Part shown: positions 7,478-14,049 of the stretch, piece after piece
Position numbering within the stretch: the stretch's first letter is position 1
Layout of the letters: every line of letters begins with the position of its first letter
From: Acaryochloris marina MBIC11017
GTDB taxonomy: Bacteria > Cyanobacteriota > Cyanobacteriia > Thermosynechococcales > Thermosynechococcaceae
Length of the DNA stretch: 32,000 bases
Assembly (NCBI RefSeq): GCF_000018105.1
Contig: NC_009925.1
Coordinates: forward strand, 810,001-842,000
Reading direction: 5' to 3'
Notes under the pieces: model-generated
What the model was told of the DNA's origin: nothing
The model's database searches: none
The model's input: the letters and a program-made list of their open reading frames with translations, nothing else
Program-made: the position numbers and the translations under genes

Positions 7478-9475
7478 ATGCAAAAGAAGGTTGTGATCCT
7501 TGGTGGAGGCGTGGCTGGACTGAGTGCCGCCCATGAGCTGATTGAACGAGGGTTTGCCGTAGACGTATACGAAGCCAAGAAAATTCCTGGAGGAAAGGCC
7601 CGCAGTATTCCCGTGCCCAATACCGGAGGCATGGGCCCCAATGGTCCTCGAAAGCCCCTGCCCGGAGAACATGGCTTCCGATTTTTCCCTCGCTTCTACA
7701 AACATATTGTTGATACCATGGCGCGGATTCCTTATGGGAAAAACAAAACCGTTGCCGATAATCTGGTCGATACAACGCGAGTTGAAATGGCCCGCTATGG
7801 CCAACGTCCCATCGTATTTCCATCCCGTTCTCCTCGCACCTTTGCAGATGTCCAGGAAATCCTCAATGAGTTTCCCACCATTTTTGGGCCAGACTTTGGC
7901 GTCTCTCCCGAAGAAATTGCTTTTTTTGGCACCAAAGTCTGGCAAATCGTCACTTCTTGCGAAGAACGGCGCTTAGCGGAATATGAGAAAGAAGACTGGT
8001 GGGAGTTTGTAGGGGCAGACCAGCGTTCCCCGGCCTATCAGAAAATTTTTGGTCATGGCATCACCCGTTCCCTGGTCGCGGCAAAGGCTCATCTGGCGAG
8101 TACCAAAACCATTGGCGATATTTTTGTCCAGCTTCTGTTTGATTTAGTAGAGCCGGGACCGAGTAGCGATCGCGTTCTCAATGCGCCCACCAACGATGCC
8201 TGGATCAACCCTTGGCTGGCCTACTTAATTCGACAAGGGGTGCAATATCATCTGGAGGCCAAGGTCTTAGCCATTGACTGTGTGAATGGACTGATTCAGG
8301 GAGCCACGATTGAGCAAGATGGCCAGACTTTTCAGGCTCAAGGGGACTATTACATCGCCGCAGTCCCGATCGAGCGCATGGCGGAGCTGGTGACCGACAG
8401 CCTCAAAACGGCGGATCCAGAATTAGGGAAGCTCCATCAGCTCAGCGAAGGCGGGGTGTCCTGGATGAATGGCATTCAGCTTTATTTAACGCAGGATGTG
8501 CCCCTGTCCCACGGCCATGCGATTTATGTCGATTCTCCCTGGGCGCTCACCTCTATTTCCCAACGACAGTTTTGGCCAGGGGTTGATTTTAATCAATATG
8601 CCGACGGTCGGATTAAAGGCATCATCTCTGTTGATATTTCCGAGTGGGATGAAAAGGGCCTCAATGGCAAAACTGCCAAGGAATGCACGCGGGAGGAAGT
8701 TAAAAATGAGGTGTGGGCGCAACTCAAAAAGAGCATCAATATCCACGGCCAGGAAATTCTCAAGGATGAATATTTAGACCATTGGTTTTTGGATCCGGCG
8801 ATTTACCTGGTCGAGGGGGAAGGAGATACCAATGAAGAACCGCTGCTGGTCAATTTAATTAATACTTGGGTGAAACGCCCAGACGCGGTGACGGATATTC
8901 CCAATCTATTTCTTGCGTCCGATTATGTTCGCACCTATACGGATCTGGCGACCATGGAAGGGGCCAATGAAGCGGCTCGCCGCGCTGTCAACGGCATTAT
9001 TGAGTCGGCCAACATGGATGCCCCTCCATGCAAGATCTGGAAGCTGCATGAGCAAGAAATTTTTGAACCCTGGCGAGTGATCGATCGCATTCGGTTTCAC
9101 CAGGGCTTACCCTGGGATGACAGTTTGGTGCGATGGGGATTATCGGCTCTCAAGTTAGCCCACCAAGGTGGCCGAATTCTGGAGCAGTTGCTCGGGGTCA
9201 CCATTGATCAGCCCCTGGAAAAATTAGGTAACCCCCTCTATGCGGTCGGCACCCAAGGCTTTGACAATGTTGAACTGCGGCAAGAGCTGATGGAGGTGGT
9301 GCAAAAGTCAGTGCTAGATATTGTGGTGCGGATGGCGGAGTCCCAAACGATGCCTGAAACCATCCCTAGCTTGGCTACACTCCAAACATTATCCGAACAG
9401 CACCACCCCTCTTTTGTTCAGTCCTCTAAACAGCCCCCTCAGCGTTCCGGAAAAGTCCGCATTATTCCTGAGTGA
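7478..9475 (+). CDS. FAD-dependent oxidoreductase (amine oxidase / phytoene desaturase superfamily) with a non-catalytic C-terminal extension of about 155 aa
   Basis: 665-aa ORF, ATG at 7478 preceded by AGGAAA. N-terminal dinucleotide-binding motif VVILGGGVAGLSAAHEL...YEAKKIPGGKARS. C-terminal FAD motif FLASDYVRTYTDLATMEGANEAARRAVNGI ends near residue 510. About 155 further residues follow, up to ...QPPQRSGKVRIIPE. Confidence 0.9.
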   Translation: MQKKVVILGGGVAGLSAAHELIERGFAVDVYEAKKIPGGKARSIPVPNTGGMGPNGPRKPLPGEHGFRFFPRFYKHIVDTMARIPYGKNKTVADNLVDTTRVEMARYGQRPIVFPSRSPRTFADVQEILNEFPTIFGPDFGVSPEEIAFFGTKVWQIVTSCEERRLAEYEKEDWWEFVGADQRSPAYQKIFGHGITRSLVAAKAHLASTKTIGDIFVQLLFDLVEPGPSSDRVLNAPTNDAWINPWLAYLIRQGVQYHLEAKVLAIDCVNGLIQGATIEQDGQTFQAQGDYYIAAVPIERMAELVTDSLKTADPELGKLHQLSEGGVSWMNGIQLYLTQDVPLSHGHAIYVDSPWALTSISQRQFWPGVDFNQYADGRIKGIISVDISEWDEKGLNGKTAKECTREEVKNEVWAQLKKSINIHGQEILKDEYLDHWFLDPAIYLVEGEGDTNEEPLLVNLINTWVKRPDAVTDIPNLFLASDYVRTYTDLATMEGANEAARRAVNGIIESANMDAPPCKIWKLHEQEIFEPWRVIDRIRFHQGLPWDDSLVRWGLSALKLAHQGGRILEQLLGVTIDQPLEKLGNPLYAVGTQGFDNVELRQELMEVVQKSVLDIVVRMAESQTMPETIPSLATLQTLSEQHHPSFVQSSKQPPQRSGKVRIIPE

Positions 9476-9515: not shown

Positions 9516-10568
9516 GTGTCCCTAGCTGCCCTTACCCCTCCGGATCTAGAGACCCTTCAGGTCCATCTCGGTCATTACCGAGAGGTGACGTTGGCCGCGT
9601 TGTTGGCTGTGATTCCCACGGGCGAACCCCAACAGTATCTGTATGAGCCGATCAAAAGACACCTCTCCCATATGGGGAAGGGCTTGCGTCCCGCCTTATG
9701 TATGGCGACCTGTCAGGCCTTTGGGGGGACTGAAGAACAGTCCCTCAAATCAGCCGTTGCCTTAGAAATGATTCACAATGCTTTCCTAGTCCATGATGAC
9801 GTGGAAGATAACAGTGAATGCCGCCATCGCATGCCCACCCTGCAGGCAGAGCAGGGGGTGCCCATCGCGGTTAATATTGGCGATGCCATGAATGCCTTAA
9901 GCCTGAGATTGGTCCGGGAAAATATTCCCATGCTGGGTCATCAACTGACCCAACGGATCTATGAAGAGTTTGAGCATTTAATGTTGAAATCCTTAGAGGG
10001 GCAAGCCTCAGAACTAGGGTGGGTAAGGGACAACCGCTGTGATATCACCGAAGCGGATTACCTACAGATGATTTTGAATAAGACCTGTTGGTATAGCTTT
10101 ATGCATCCCTGCCGGATTGGGGGTCTGATTGCCTCTAAAGACACCCTGGACCTGGACCGCTTTAATAAGTTTGGATACTTTATGGGGGCGGCCTTTCAGA
10201 TTCAAGATGATGTGCTGAATTTGGTGGGGGATTCCCACCAGTATGGCAAAGAAATTGGCGGTGATATTTGGGAAGGTAAGCGAACGTTGATGTTAGTGCA
10301 CCTATTTAAACAAGGCACCCCATCAGAGCGGGATGTGCTCCAAGCCTTTATGGCAAAACCTCGGGGAGAACGGTCTGAAGAGGAGGTGAGCTGGGTGATT
10401 CAACGCATGCAAGATTACGGCAGTATTGACTATGCGATCGCAGTCGCCCATCAGTTTGCCGAAGCAGCCTTAGAAGAATTCTCGGTGGCCTATCAGGATA
10501 CGCCCAACTCTGGGGAAAAAGCGTTTATCCCCAAATTGATTCACTATATGATTAGCCGTAATCTATAG
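9516..10568 (+). CDS. Polyprenyl diphosphate synthase (trans-isoprenyl diphosphate synthase, type III GGPPS-like motifs)
   Basis: 350-aa ORF with a GTG start at 9516 and GAGG 6 nt upstream. First Asp-rich motif LVHDDVEDNSECRHRMPT; second motif FQIQDDVLNL; also GKGLRPAL and GKRTLM motifs. Confidence 0.9.
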   Translation: MSLAALTPPDLETLQVHLGHYREVTLAALLAVIPTGEPQQYLYEPIKRHLSHMGKGLRPALCMATCQAFGGTEEQSLKSAVALEMIHNAFLVHDDVEDNSECRHRMPTLQAEQGVPIAVNIGDAMNALSLRLVRENIPMLGHQLTQRIYEEFEHLMLKSLEGQASELGWVRDNRCDITEADYLQMILNKTCWYSFMHPCRIGGLIASKDTLDLDRFNKFGYFMGAAFQIQDDVLNLVGDSHQYGKEIGGDIWEGKRTLMLVHLFKQGTPSERDVLQAFMAKPRGERSEEEVSWVIQRMQDYGSIDYAIAVAHQFAEAALEEFSVAYQDTPNSGEKAFIPKLIHYMISRNL

Positions 10569-10606
10569 GACCACTGGTTTTGAGTCGCAAGTAGAGGACA
10601 GTCAAG

Positions 10607-11368
10607 ATGAAACACTATCGACGTAAACCCCTCCAGCTCATCGATCAAGGGCTACCCGAATCGGTCACTGGCCTTCTGGAACAGGTTGAAACACTTCCAT
10701 CTACGGTGTCTGAAGCGGGAGGGTTAGCTGCTGAGCCCAAAGCGCTCACAGATCCGGTTGCTCAGGTTATCCAGCCCATGGCCGGTGAAACAATACCCAC
10801 CCCTGAAGCTCTCGTACAGCAAGCAGCCACTATTCTTGATAACGATCTATCAACTCCCCTCGAATCTGCTCAGACCGTAGCCTCTCCCCTAGACCTAGGA
10901 ACGACGACTCCTCCTAGACCCAATAGCTATTCTGTTCCAGGCTTAGTGGACGAAATGCATGGATTTGTCAATGAGTTGGCTAATCTACTCTCCCTCAAAT
11001 CAAATTTGCCGGGTAGCGTATCAGAATCAGCACCATCGAGCGAGGCAGGTGTTCCTCTACTGCAGCCTGCATACCCCAGCCACGCGGGAGAGACAGTTCA
11101 GATCTCATTTAAGGTTCACAATGATCGATCAGAATCCACTCAAACCAAAGTTTTTTGTACGGATTTGCACAGTTGCCAAGGCGATCTAATTGCTCAGGAT
11201 GCAATATCTATTACCCCCAATCCCCTCAGTCTTGCACCCGACGCAACAGAGTCCATTCATATTTCCATTCAACTCCCCCAGAATCTTCCTAAAGGCGAGT
11301 ATTCAGGGATTTTAATGGCAACGGAATTGTCTTACCTAAAAGCGATGATTTCGGTAGTAGTGACTTAA
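10607..11368 (+). CDS. Hypothetical protein: ~150-aa low-complexity (P/S/T/E/A-rich, likely disordered) N-terminal half plus ~100-aa beta-sandwich-like C-terminal domain
   Basis: 253-aa ORF, ATG at 10607 with GAGGA upstream, 38 nt after the prenyl synthase stop. The C-terminal pattern GETVQISFKVHN...ISITPNPLSLAPDATESIHISIQLPQNLPKGEYSGILMA resembles CARDB/NEW3-type Ig-like folds. Confidence 0.7.
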   Translation: MKHYRRKPLQLIDQGLPESVTGLLEQVETLPSTVSEAGGLAAEPKALTDPVAQVIQPMAGETIPTPEALVQQAATILDNDLSTPLESAQTVASPLDLGTTTPPRPNSYSVPGLVDEMHGFVNELANLLSLKSNLPGSVSESAPSSEAGVPLLQPAYPSHAGETVQISFKVHNDRSESTQTKVFCTDLHSCQGDLIAQDAISITPNPLSLAPDATESIHISIQLPQNLPKGEYSGILMATELSYLKAMISVVVT

Positions 11369-11464
11369 CCAATGTCGTCTCTTTAAGGGAAGGTGAGGGT
11401 CAGTGTTAAAGTTCTTCCGATTAGGATTCAGCATATTTTGGTTGTAATCACTGAATTGACCTAC

Positions 11465-11483
11465 ATGGGGACGAATTCCCCAT
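11465..11483. terminator. Short hairpin in the convergent gap between the accessory operon and the 175-aa gene
   Basis: ATGGGGA-cgaat-TCCCCAT, a 7-bp perfect stem with a 5-nt loop, 8 nt from the stop of the minus-strand 175-aa ORF. Only a weak T/A tract follows. Confidence 0.3.
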
Positions 11484-11490
11484 CTATTAA

Positions 11491-12018
11491 TTACAGGTCC
11501 ATATCCAGGATAGTGTGCATCGTCCCGCACTGAAGACATTTTCCTACAAAGACAGCATGGCAAAAATAGTCTTGAATGGGTAAATCAGGCTCATCTTCAA
11601 GAAGTTCGTCACAGGCGTCCCAATAATTTAATTGCAATAAAACATGAAACCAATCATGGTCGCAATCACTGCATAAATAGACCTTTGGCAGCCCTGAACC
11701 GCGAAATTTAGCGGATGCATTCATCTCACCGTGATAGCCATGTATTTGACTATCGAAAACACAAATTTCGGGGCCATTGAACCATTTAAGATAAAGCGGG
11801 CTGATAAAGCTGGAGTCATCTCTGCAATTGGGATTGTAGTCTACCAGTGGATGGCCCAAAACCTGTACCTCTAAAGCGCTATCTAGTGGTGATGTCAATG
11901 TAAATGCCGTAGCGATGGCATCGTTGGGGCTGAATGGGGGAATTGAAATGGCTTTAACCTGCTCAAGACAGCGCGGTAACTCTATTTTGAGAAGAGATTC
12001 AAGGTCAACCATGCTCAA
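11491..12018 (-). CDS. Hypothetical Cys-rich protein (two CxxC pairs, possible zinc ribbon)
   Basis: 175-aa ORF with TTG at 12018 (alternative ATG at 12012), 6 nt downstream of the NIL-ferredoxin stop on the same strand. CSDCDHDW and KCLQCGTMH motifs. Confidence 0.6.
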   Translation of the reverse strand: MSMVDLESLLKIELPRCLEQVKAISIPPFSPNDAIATAFTLTSPLDSALEVQVLGHPLVDYNPNCRDDSSFISPLYLKWFNGPEICVFDSQIHGYHGEMNASAKFRGSGLPKVYLCSDCDHDWFHVLLQLNYWDACDELLEDEPDLPIQDYFCHAVFVGKCLQCGTMHTILDMDL

Positions 12019-12024
12019 TGCCTA

Positions 12025-12474
12025 CTAAAAATTGGTAGAGATTGCTTGAACCGGACAAGTAGGGACACATTGCTCACAGACAATGCAGCGCGATCGGGTA
12101 AAATTCAGCAAAAAAGATTTAGGGTCAAGGGTGAGGGCCTGAGTGGGGCAGATGCCCGTACATAAACCGCAGTGAACGCAGCTATCTTCATCGATCAGAA
12201 TTTCGCGATTCGATGAAGACACATCAATATTTTGGGAAATCATCCAATCGATAGCCGCATCAAGCTGATCAATATCACCCGCCAATTCCACCACCAACTT
12301 ACCAATTTGGTTTGGGGCCACCTGGGCACGAATTATGTTTGCCGCTACATTGAAATCTTTTGCCAATCGATAGGTAACTGGAACCGGAACGGCTCGTCGA
12401 GGGAACGTAAGAGTAACGCGCTTTTTCACGGGCCAGACAACGGTAGGGGCACTTTTAATTGTAAAGCAGGTCAA
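12025..12474 (-). CDS. NIL-domain protein fused to a 2x[4Fe-4S] ferredoxin domain
   Basis: 149-aa ORF. KKRVTLTFPRRAVPVPVTYRLAKDFNVAANIIRAQV is NIL-like. Two cluster motifs are present: CVHCGLCTGICP and CIVCEQCVPTCP. The start is uncertain: TTG at 12474, or GTG at 12429 giving MKKRVTLTFP. Confidence 0.85.
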   Translation of the reverse strand: MTCFTIKSAPTVVWPVKKRVTLTFPRRAVPVPVTYRLAKDFNVAANIIRAQVAPNQIGKLVVELAGDIDQLDAAIDWMISQNIDVSSSNREILIDEDSCVHCGLCTGICPTQALTLDPKSFLLNFTRSRCIVCEQCVPTCPVQAISTNF

Positions 12475-12558
12475 AAGGATATAAATTCCCCCCTCGCCTC
12501 GTAAAAGTTTAGGCTAATCTGTTAGAGATGAGCTGTTCATAGGAAAAGCACGTTAACC

Positions 12559-14049
12559 ATGCCCAACGCCCACCGCAACCGATTTCTAAGTAAAACCCTA
12601 CAGCGGTTAATTGCCTTCGCGGTCATTCCCCTCTTGCTAGTCATCGGTTCGATTCGTCCGGGTACAGCAGCCACAGCTAAACACTATACAGACTTAGAAT
12701 TTCCACCCCTCCCTGAAGTAACCATCCCAGAATATAGTCGGTTCCAACTGGATAACGGTTTGACTGTTTACTTGATGGAAAATCATGAACTGCCTTTGGT
12801 CAACGGCATTGCTCGCATGCGGACGGGGTCACGGCTGGAGCCTGCCGATAAAGTCGGCTTAGCGGATATCGTTGGCACCGTGATGCGGTCGGGCGGTACC
12901 AAAACACATCCCTCTGATCAGCTCAACCAAATGCTAGAGCAACGGGCGGCCTCTGTAGAAACTGGGATTAGTACCGCTTCCGGCAGTGCCTCCTTCGCGG
13001 CCTTGAGTGAAGACTTAGATACCGTCTTTGGCTTATTTGCGGAAGTCATTCGCGAACCGGCGTTCGAAGAGGACAAGCTCGTTTTAGCCAAGACTCAGCG
13101 TCGAGGAAACATTGCCCGTCGGAATGATGACCCCGATGACATTACAGGCCGAGAATTTAAAAAACTGATTTATGGGGGAGACAGCCCCTATGCGCGCACC
13201 CAGGAATATCAAACCCTCGACAATATCACTCAAGCCGATGTTGAATCCTTTTACCAACAAAACTTCCACCCCAACTGCATGATTTTGGGCATTGTGGGAG
13301 ATTTCGATTCTGCCGCTATGACTCAGCGGATCAAACAGGAATTTGGCGATTGGCCCGCAATACCCGAGCGGGATGAAGCACCACCTGCACCGGGAGCAGA
13401 GCAAATCAAAGCTGGGGAGACATTTATCGTTGATCAGCCTCAACTCTCCCAAAGCAATATCCAAATTGGTCATTTGGGAGGGAAGTTTGATAGCCCTGAT
13501 ATTTTCTCCTTACTAGTGATGAATGAAGCCCTCAACAGCTTTGGGGGACGGTTGTTTAACGAAGTACGATCTCGCCAGGGATTAGCCTACTCTGTCTATG
13601 CAGTATGGAGTGCCCGTTACGATTATCCAGGGCTATTTATTTCTGGCGGGCAGACGCGTTCAGAAGCAACCGTGCCATTTATCAATGCGGTGTTGGGTGA
13701 ACTGAAAAAGGTCCGTGAAGCGCCCTTATCGGCGGATGAACTTCAACAGGCCAAGGATTCAATTCTCAACTCTTTTGTCTTTAACTTTCAGGATCCCGGC
13801 CAAACCTTGTCTCGTTTAATGCGATATGAGTACTTTGGTTATCCCGATGATTTTATCTTCCAATATCAGCGGGCAGTCAAAACCATGACGGCTGAAAAAG
13901 TTCAGGCTGCAGCGAAGAAATATCTGCAGCCTGACCAGATTGTCACTTTAGTCGTGGGGAACCGCTCAGCAATTCAACCCCCATTAGAAGACTTAGGAAA
14001 AACGGTGACCCCAGTTGATATCACAATTCCTCAACCCGTGTCTTCCTAA
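12559..14049 (+). CDS. M16 (pitrilysin/insulinase) family peptidase-like protein, apparently the non-catalytic type, with an N-terminal signal/anchor
   Basis: 496-aa ORF, ATG at 12559. Hydrophobic N-terminus LIAFAVIPLLLVIGS. M16 fold signatures are present (YLMENHELPLV, GLAYSVYA). The position of the HxxEH zinc motif reads GLADIVGTVMRSGGT, with no His-x-x-Glu-His. Confidence 0.88.
   Translation: MPNAHRNRFLSKTLQRLIAFAVIPLLLVIGSIRPGTAATAKHYTDLEFPPLPEVTIPEYSRFQLDNGLTVYLMENHELPLVNGIARMRTGSRLEPADKVGLADIVGTVMRSGGTKTHPSDQLNQMLEQRAASVETGISTASGSASFAALSEDLDTVFGLFAEVIREPAFEEDKLVLAKTQRRGNIARRNDDPDDITGREFKKLIYGGDSPYARTQEYQTLDNITQADVESFYQQNFHPNCMILGIVGDFDSAAMTQRIKQEFGDWPAIPERDEAPPAPGAEQIKAGETFIVDQPQLSQSNIQIGHLGGKFDSPDIFSLLVMNEALNSFGGRLFNEVRSRQGLAYSVYAVWSARYDYPGLFISGGQTRSEATVPFINAVLGELKKVREAPLSADELQQAKDSILNSFVFNFQDPGQTLSRLMRYEYFGYPDDFIFQYQRAVKTMTAEKVQAAAKKYLQPDQIVTLVVGNRSAIQPPLEDLGKTVTPVDITIPQPVSS

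Follow-up and report, generated by a model that had tools for sequence, protein, structure and literature searches.

In the cyanobacterium Acaryochloris marina MBIC11017, an oxidoreductase gene lies directly downstream of a gene for an encapsulin shell protein. The question raised by this arrangement is whether the long C-terminal tail of the enzyme docks it to the encapsulin system and, if so, to which of its components. The analysis concerns a stretch of 32,000 nucleotides (contig NC_009925.1, positions 810,001 to 842,000 of the forward strand), in the following termed the window, to which all coordinates refer unless another locus is named. The open reading frame (ORF) for the flavin adenine dinucleotide (FAD) oxidoreductase encodes 665 amino acids (7478-9475, + strand; Pfam Amino_oxidase PF01593, residues 12-508) and starts 47 nt 3' of the end of the shell ORF, in the same orientation. 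A first-pass annotation had described its last ~155 residues plus stop codon (9007-9475) as a possible cargo-loading or anchoring tail made up of helices, a polar linker and a GKVRIIPE end. The interval is correct, with TMEGANEAARRAVNGIIES (...NGIIES) ending at residue 510, and all of the named elements are present in the ORF. Docking of the enzyme, via this tail, to one or another component of the encapsulin system is considered likely, and direct docking to the shell is put forward tentatively as the mechanism.

Architecture and conservation of the C-terminal tail

Contrary to the first-pass annotation, the flavoenzyme fold does not end around residue 510. In 79 homologues, the segment 511-548 shows little or no variation (invariant are C518, W521, L523, E525, P531, R533, D536, R539 and G543-L544-W546), and it is also kept in tail-less homologues of 540-560 amino acids. 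In the AlphaFold model it includes a helix at residues 527-541 with a predicted local distance difference test (pLDDT) score of ~90, and pLDDT stays mostly above 85 up to residue ~555. Since residues 511-548 are conserved, present in tail-less relatives and confidently modeled, the first ~38 residues of the supposed extension belong to the flavoenzyme core (residues 1-548; 7478..9121, + strand), which has an amine-oxidase/phytoene-desaturase-like fold, and the lineage-specific extension comprises ~117 amino acids, residues ~549-665 (nt 9122-9472, + strand).

The extension starts with a proximal amphipathic helix (residues 549-572, SLVRWGLSALKLAHQGGRILEQLL; 9122..9193, + strand), along which pLDDT falls from 66 to 48. 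It is followed by a variable region (residues 573-597; 9194..9268, + strand) with pLDDT below 50 and low column conservation, by a distal conserved helix (residues 598-622, VELRQELMEVVQKSVLDIVVRMAES; 9269..9343, + strand) that is modeled at pLDDT ~52 and moderately conserved across tailed homologues, and by a disordered polar linker rich in Q, P, S and T (residues 623-656; 9344..9445, + strand) with pLDDT values of 33-47, a short low-confidence helix at residues 632-640 and a conservation near zero. Family-wide, the linker measures 9-42 amino acids (median 30.5) and is rich in A, S, G, R, T and P. The protein ends in the peptide SGKVRIIPE (residues 657-665, together with the stop codon 9446..9475, + strand), a candidate docking or targeting peptide that is modeled as coil. 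Over the tail as a whole, residues 564-601 and 623-665 mostly have pLDDT values below 50.

The terminal peptide is the most conserved part of the tail and stands directly behind its least conserved part. A motif G-[RK]-V-[R>Q,E]-I-[ILV], in its fuller form G-[KR]-V-[R/Q/E]-I-[I/L/V]-P, is carried by 112 of 124 tailed homologues, and in each of these only 1-3 residues separate it from the C-terminus. The residues at its six core positions (n = 112) are G in 107 cases, R or K in 103, V in 106, R in 76, I in 105 and I, L or V in 108. The other 12 tailed homologues mostly carry close variants, e.g., GKVKIA, GRARVV or RRGRIV, and distant variants comprise GN[VI]RFVE in Actinomycetota, LRRLR[ILV]V in Myxococcota, and RRIRITQK or GRLRIVQKP in Alphaproteobacteria and Nitrospirota. 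Common to the variants is a basic-aliphatic-basic-aliphatic-aliphatic theme. Top conservation within the tail and a motif fixed near the C-terminus in the great majority of sequences argue that the end peptide is not a chance feature, and few short elements outside the catalytic core are conserved as strongly. Hydrophobic and basic residues alternate along the peptide, the β-strand hydrophobic moment of which is 0.70. The general architecture suggested by the first-pass annotation, a flexible linker followed by a short terminal peptide, is thus recovered as a disordered, variable linker in front of a conserved C-terminal peptide. A 593-amino-acid ORF downstream of a myxobacterial operon (L017:15035-16816) ends in ...AGKRVRVVRDRMGAPE, which is loosely motif-like and may be chance.

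Distribution of the tail and composition of the operon

The family of oxidoreductase homologues is very large, with at least 8,000 proteins scored. Linkage was surveyed in 80 loci from species-representative genomes with 10-kb flanks, annotated by six-frame ORFs and iterated hidden Markov models seeded from the window proteins, and in four further contigs. All 29 long-tailed loci (more than ~50 residues after GLPWD) with enough flanking sequence adjoin an encapsulin gene, and nearly all of them also contain genes for a DUF3237 protein and a prenyl diphosphate synthase; the 5.6-kb contig of locus L020 stops short of the expected shell position. About 50 tail-less homologues of 540-600 amino acids have no encapsulin, DUF3237 or prenyl synthase gene within 10 kb. 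The four further contigs agree with the linkage of tail and shell. The whole operon is present in a Mesorhizobium locus and also occurs on a 912-kb metagenome contig, where the shell gene is broken by assembly frameshifts, and no shell gene accompanies a tail-less homologue of 549 amino acids with 62% identity. The comparison of linked with unlinked homologues, which the first-pass annotation had named as a check on its proposal, accordingly yielded long tails beside encapsulin genes only and tail-less enzymes that are never linked.

Tail-less relatives often end in hydrophobic, amphipathic or transmembrane helices directly after GLPWDG (L071, L072, L075, L078, L085), and a Chlorobiota homologue (L038:10001-12154) has a C-terminal extension of 167 amino acids with several predicted transmembrane helices. 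From these hydrophobic C-terminal helices, homologues unlinked to encapsulin may be membrane-anchored. In several loci (L004:11008-12107, L016, L029, L039, L040, L041, L044 and L047), shell, DUF3237 or oxidoreductase genes are split over two or three frames; in these contigs of metagenome-assembled genomes the splits most likely represent assembly indels and not pseudogenes. The shell gene of L004 had been missed by gene callers.

In a maximum-likelihood tree of the core domains, the linked enzymes form one clade with a support of 94 in the Shimodaira-Hasegawa-like approximate likelihood ratio test (SH-aLRT). It contains members of the Cyanobacteriota, Armatimonadota, Actinomycetota, Pseudomonadota, Myxococcota and Nitrospirota, and a single Flavobacteriales sequence that has neither tail nor linkage is placed inside it with weak support. 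The tree suggests roughly one origin of the association between tail and shell, followed by lateral spread of the whole operon. Judged from this distribution, the tail belongs to the encapsulin system.

The operon in the window consists of five + strand genes in a row, encoding a DUF3237 protein, the encapsulin shell, the FAD oxidoreductase, a prenyl diphosphate synthase and an immunoglobulin (Ig)-like protein. The shell protein (292 amino acids; 6552..7430, + strand), the candidate partner of the tail, is a divergent Family 1 encapsulin of the "New" cluster. It scores 75 bits against PF04454 (cut-off 24), carries the HK97-fold Linocin_M18/encapsulin signature and stays below the cut-off of the NCBIfam model encap_f1 (79 bits, cut-off 100). 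Its gene is the sole PF04454 locus in the 8.36-Mb genome, and a profile of the shells of the cluster matches EncA of Myxococcus xanthus with an E-value of 5e-30. The DUF3237 protein (5541..6425, + strand; PF11578, 107 bits, residues 147-293) has an extra N-terminal domain and is a constant member of the operon. The prenyl diphosphate synthase (350 amino acids; 9516..10568, + strand; PF00348, 202 bits) and the Ig-like β-sandwich protein (253 amino acids; 10607..11368, + strand), the N-terminal half of which is disordered, follow downstream of the oxidoreductase. Upstream of the five-gene row lies a cyclase-STAND-TPR gene (2073-5531). Iterated searching yielded 70 ORF matches to it over all fetched loci, and a cyclase-AAA_16(STAND)-TPR gene adjoins the operon in most linked loci, across phyla; at L086:478-4236 its place is taken by a TIR_2-AAA_16 protein. 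In the Mesorhizobium operon, a 147-amino-acid ORF without a Pfam match (L003:7082-7525) is located between the shell and oxidoreductase genes, and it has no counterpart at the same position in the window.

With regard to the enzyme itself, the modeled fold comes closest to that of rice phytoene desaturase (5MOG; template modeling score 0.82, target-normalized) at only 17% identity, followed by oleate hydratases, nicotine oxidoreductase and monoamine oxidases, and the sequence of the oxidoreductase gave only weak N-terminal Rossmann matches against the PDB. An identity as HpnE, taken from UniRef names, was rejected (83 bits, NCBIfam cut-off 283). The NCBIfam models for PDS and CrtI reach 24-41 bits with cut-offs above 230, which places the protein outside these families as well, and among the matches listed, the nearest named homologues are from Acaryochloris. 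On sequence and fold, the oxidoreductase is an uncharacterized amine-oxidase-fold member of a group acting on long lipophilic substrates, consistent with the prenyl synthase as neighbor.

Monoamine oxidase and oleate hydratase possess C-terminal membrane segments. The tail could accordingly anchor the enzyme to a membrane or lipid surface or play a part in regulation or turnover, in which case shared ancestry alone would explain why it is confined to encapsulin operons. The single clade of tailed, shell-linked enzymes would agree with this, as would the helical ends of many tail-less relatives, to which the proximal helix is comparable in amphipathicity (helical hydrophobic moment 0.55, and 0.40-0.74 for the terminal amphipathic helices of tail-less homologues), and the C-terminal membrane association that PDB titles or known biology indicate for structural neighbors, e.g., 8UR3 OhyA and MAO-A. 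An anchor, however, would account for the proximal helix alone and leaves a conserved, charged 7-residue peptide at the C-terminus behind a variable disordered linker unexplained; moreover, tailed enzyme and shell have stayed together throughout the spread of the operon over at least six phyla. We therefore regard a function of this kind as improbable.

Candidate partners of the terminal peptide

In the explanation that we favor, residues ~549-665 would serve as a flexible tether and the last 8-9 residues (SGKVRIIPE) as a short linear docking peptide which, during shell assembly, would bind in an extended or β-strand form to the inner face of the protomer encoded by the adjacent encapsulin gene. 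By this docking, the phytoene-desaturase-like flavoenzyme would be packed inside a ~35-nm compartment specialized for an isoprenoid reaction. The peptide would then represent a divergent loading signal of the Family 1 type, in which basic-V-basic-I-I/L-P takes the place of L-x-I-G-S-L-K. Support comes from the adjacency of the shell gene, from a disordered tail with a conserved end, from the exclusive occurrence of this tail in encapsulin operons and from the agreement with the binding grammar of Family 1. Taken as a whole, we hold this explanation with somewhat less than even confidence. Direct binding of the end peptide to the shell itself is a credible but still tentative assignment. A similar reserve applies to the proposal that endings of the SGKVRIIPE type constitute a new class of cargo-loading peptides, possibly packing the flavoenzyme into "New" Family 1 shells either alone or together with the prenyl diphosphate synthase and accessory β-sandwich proteins.

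Several observations weigh against direct docking to the shell. The Gly-Ser-Leu core of known loading peptides (L-x-[IV]-G-S-L-[KR]) occurs neither in SGKVRIIPE nor in any of the lineage variants, in agreement with the first-pass statement that the peptide does not match the LxIGSL(K/R) consensus. On the side of the shell, residues R35 and D39 of EncA align to G30 and A34 of the window protein, and the consensus of the cluster is small or Pro at these positions; from spacing and numbering, R35 and D39 would correspond to the peptide contacts Arg34 and Asp38 of KpEnc. With the canonical contacts absent from the shell, a canonical peptide would lose its polar contacts here, and their absence fits a divergent pair of peptide and pocket or a different loading route. 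In natural fusions of the oxidoreductase with the synthase, the shell is kept although the distal helix, linker and end peptide are all missing. Shells from fusion operons cannot be told from those of operons with unfused enzymes at any alignment column, so that the loss of the peptide has left no visible mark on the shell; in a test of low power, this is neutral to mildly negative for direct contact between peptide and shell. A second carrier of the ending is not present in the 8.36-Mb genome (18,258 stop-to-stop ORFs of at least 80 amino acids), where the matches comprise the oxidoreductase and four spurious short ORFs, and among 1,870 scanned ORFs of linked loci the ending is found on the oxidoreductase alone. 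Two homologues in complete operons are devoid of a recognizable motif; a frameshift as the cause of motif absence in P0082 and P0071 was considered and dismissed, as no alternative frame encodes the motif. Lastly, with roughly a single origin of the association, co-occurrence by itself does not identify the shell as the partner.

The fusions are informative with respect to the other candidates. They constitute a subclade of 12 rows with a support of 100, made up of 11 oxidoreductase-synthase fusions and one copy broken by the assembly. The 11 proteins of 983-1048 amino acids are encoded in L025, L030, L041-L044, L046, L047, L053, L055 and L057, near 10001-12970 in each, and the operons are reduced to the STAND regulator, DUF3237, shell and fusion protein. 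The proximal helix is retained and even better conserved (SL.QVAAHA.RGASPLLEQVRPLLEQVAPF). A degenerate internal copy of the motif was looked for and rejected, the linker alignment of the fusions containing no conserved remnant. Of 17 unfused, motif-bearing operons, 15 contain a gene for the Ig-like protein, and the contigs of the other two (L006 and L020) are too short for a decision; the fusion operons all lack it. As the motif and the Ig-like protein are both absent from fusion operons that keep the shell, the shell, the Ig-like protein and the synthase all come into question as partners of the peptide.

An Ig-like partner is suggested by exactly this distribution, since the gene is absent just where the distal helix and the motif are absent, as expected of interacting proteins. 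In this case, the Ig-like protein would be bound by the end peptide and perhaps also by the distal helix, for instance by addition to an edge strand, for which the alternating residues and the β-strand moment of the peptide appear suitable. The Ig-like protein would either bridge enzyme and shell as an adaptor or scaffold or be part of the enzyme complex, and the tail would remain a docking module without being a direct shell-targeting peptide. The long disordered N-terminal half of the Ig-like protein and a conserved N-terminal peptide of its own are features that a scaffold might have. On the other hand, the joint absence goes back to one event within one clade, some lineages carry the Ig-like gene at a distance of several kb or on the opposite strand, and the searched literature offers no precedent for Ig-like adaptors in Family 1 loading. 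We consider this route rather unlikely, though clearly worth weighing.

The N-terminal peptide of the Ig-like proteins follows the pattern M-x-[YH]-[YF]-x-R-[KR]-P-[LI] and precedes the disordered region. It reads MKHYRRKPLQLI in the window and MPYFQRKPIEQL, MQYYRRRPLETY or MHYYRRDLLQP elsewhere, and homologues bearing it are encoded at L004:10203-10934, L012:13141-13587 (- strand), L015:13190-13666 (- strand), L086:9002-9709 and L087:9218-9925. It may serve the system as a further terminal docking peptide. In a Nitrospiraceae locus (L033:6820-8145), Ig-like and DUF3237 domains are fused in a protein of 441 amino acids, which suggests that the two accessory proteins work together.

The prenyl diphosphate synthase is the third candidate. 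Here, the tail would tether the flavoenzyme to the synthase for substrate channeling, and in the fusions a covalent link would have replaced this contact. By "Rosetta stone" logic, 11 natural fusions within one well-supported subclade, in which the synthase takes precisely the place of distal helix, linker and motif, argue for such a contact. In nearly all operons, moreover, the two genes are direct neighbors, and the stop codon of one often overlaps the start codon of the other. The fusions could, however, equally serve to co-load both enzymes. In L007, where oxidoreductase and synthase share a frame, a read-through chain of tail, 46 residues and synthase was modeled from an alignment that combined natural fusions with synthases. 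In the model, the synthase part folded at pLDDT values above 95, the motif remained a coil at 27-31 and the distal helix reached ~47, so that no docking is apparent; the model is weak evidence against the synthase as partner. We regard tethering to the synthase as very improbable.

Direct docking to the shell consequently ranks as the most likely mechanism, followed by the route via the Ig-like protein, a function unrelated to the compartment and, finally, tethering to the synthase. As to the cargo-loading tail proposed in the first-pass annotation, linkage and architecture speak for it. Its support is limited by the assignment of the first ~38 residues to the enzyme core and the resemblance of the first helix to the end helices of tail-less homologues, by the confinement to one clade, by the fusions that do without the peptide, and by the absence of both the canonical GSL core and the canonical shell contacts.

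Relation to known encapsulin systems

The shell of A. marina is not new to the literature. It was placed in the "New" capsid cluster by Giessen and Silver (bioRxiv 10.1101/085266), who obtained 35-nm capsids in Escherichia coli and reported lipid and isoprenoid genes as well as a P-loop NTPase near the loci of the cluster without naming a cargo; the 2017 Nature Microbiology version of this work is given as reference 25 of PMC13608877. The shell in the window is thus the same as that of the published cluster. In addition, 90 Family 1 systems were left unassigned by Andreas and Giessen, 2021 (PMC8346489). For the "New" cluster, neither of these papers names a cargo or a targeting peptide, and the tail and its end peptide do not appear in them. 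Literature searches for encapsulin with DUF3237, with polyprenyl and FAD oxidoreductase, with Methylocapsa and with desaturase did not return a description of such a cargo or peptide, and no solved structure is available for a shell of the cluster.

In essence, a Family 1 cluster has been known since 2017, the shells of which assemble and are encoded among isoprenoid genes, while its cargo and loading signal are not named in the searched literature. With a specific enzyme and a specific end peptide as candidates, loading in this cluster can be tested directly. If the proposed mechanism is true, the operon would encode a nanocompartment for oxidation chemistry on isoprenoids or lipids, the first of its kind in Family 1 and spread over at least six bacterial phyla, and a flavoenzyme for lipophilic substrates would be added as a new class of Family 1 cargo. 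It would also provide a new pair of peptide and pocket, orthogonal to the GSL peptides now used in engineering, and would suggest that bacteria ranging from cyanobacteria to myxobacteria sequester an isoprenoid intermediate that is reactive or hydrophobic.

Phytoene desaturase (5MOG) and the related CrtI and HpnE enzymes resemble the oxidoreductase in the FAD Rossmann motifs and the Pfam Amino_oxidase domain. Unlike the window enzyme they have no tail, and as the identity to 5MOG indicates, the fold alone is held in common. A link between isoprenoid enzymes and encapsulin shells is otherwise described for Family 2B, the cargo of which includes terpene cyclases or polyprenyl transferases (PMC8346489; 2-methylisoborneol and geosmin systems, PMC11550324, PMC13739066), and where disordered terminal regions have likewise been suspected or shown to mediate loading. 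The shells of Family 2B differ, however, by the presence of domains binding cyclic nucleoside monophosphates (cNMP), their cargo does not include a flavoenzyme, and their disordered loading domains are N-terminal or internal, with motifs of the GPTGLGT type.

The closest parallel is found in the targeting peptides of Family 1 itself, which are C-terminal, follow flexible linkers and occupy a luminal pocket with 7-12 residues, using two or three Leu, Ile or Val anchors and a terminal Lys or Arg that pairs with an acidic shell residue (PMC10960027, PMC7925596). Established examples are GGDLGIRK of Flp from Thermotoga maritima, LTVGSLRR of EncB and EncC from M. xanthus, SGSLNIGSLK of the Klebsiella pneumoniae DyP, TVGSLIQ of IMEF from Q. 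thermotolerans, and GSLGIGSLR (PMC10960027, PMC7925596). In contrast to these, the window peptide conforms to G-[KR]-V-R-I-[ILV]-P and does without the Gly-Ser-Leu core, its tether of ~117 amino acids with two helices is much longer, and the shell does not offer the Arg/Asp pair that contacts the peptide in canonical systems. The candidate cargo, a phytoene-desaturase-like flavoenzyme of ~73 kDa, likewise stands apart from the ferritin-like proteins, DyP and hemerythrins of Family 1. Common to both, on the other hand, are the location at the very C-terminal end of a protein whose gene adjoins a shell gene of the Family 1 type, and the succession of a flexible, unconserved linker and a short, conserved peptide that combines aliphatic anchors with basic residues.

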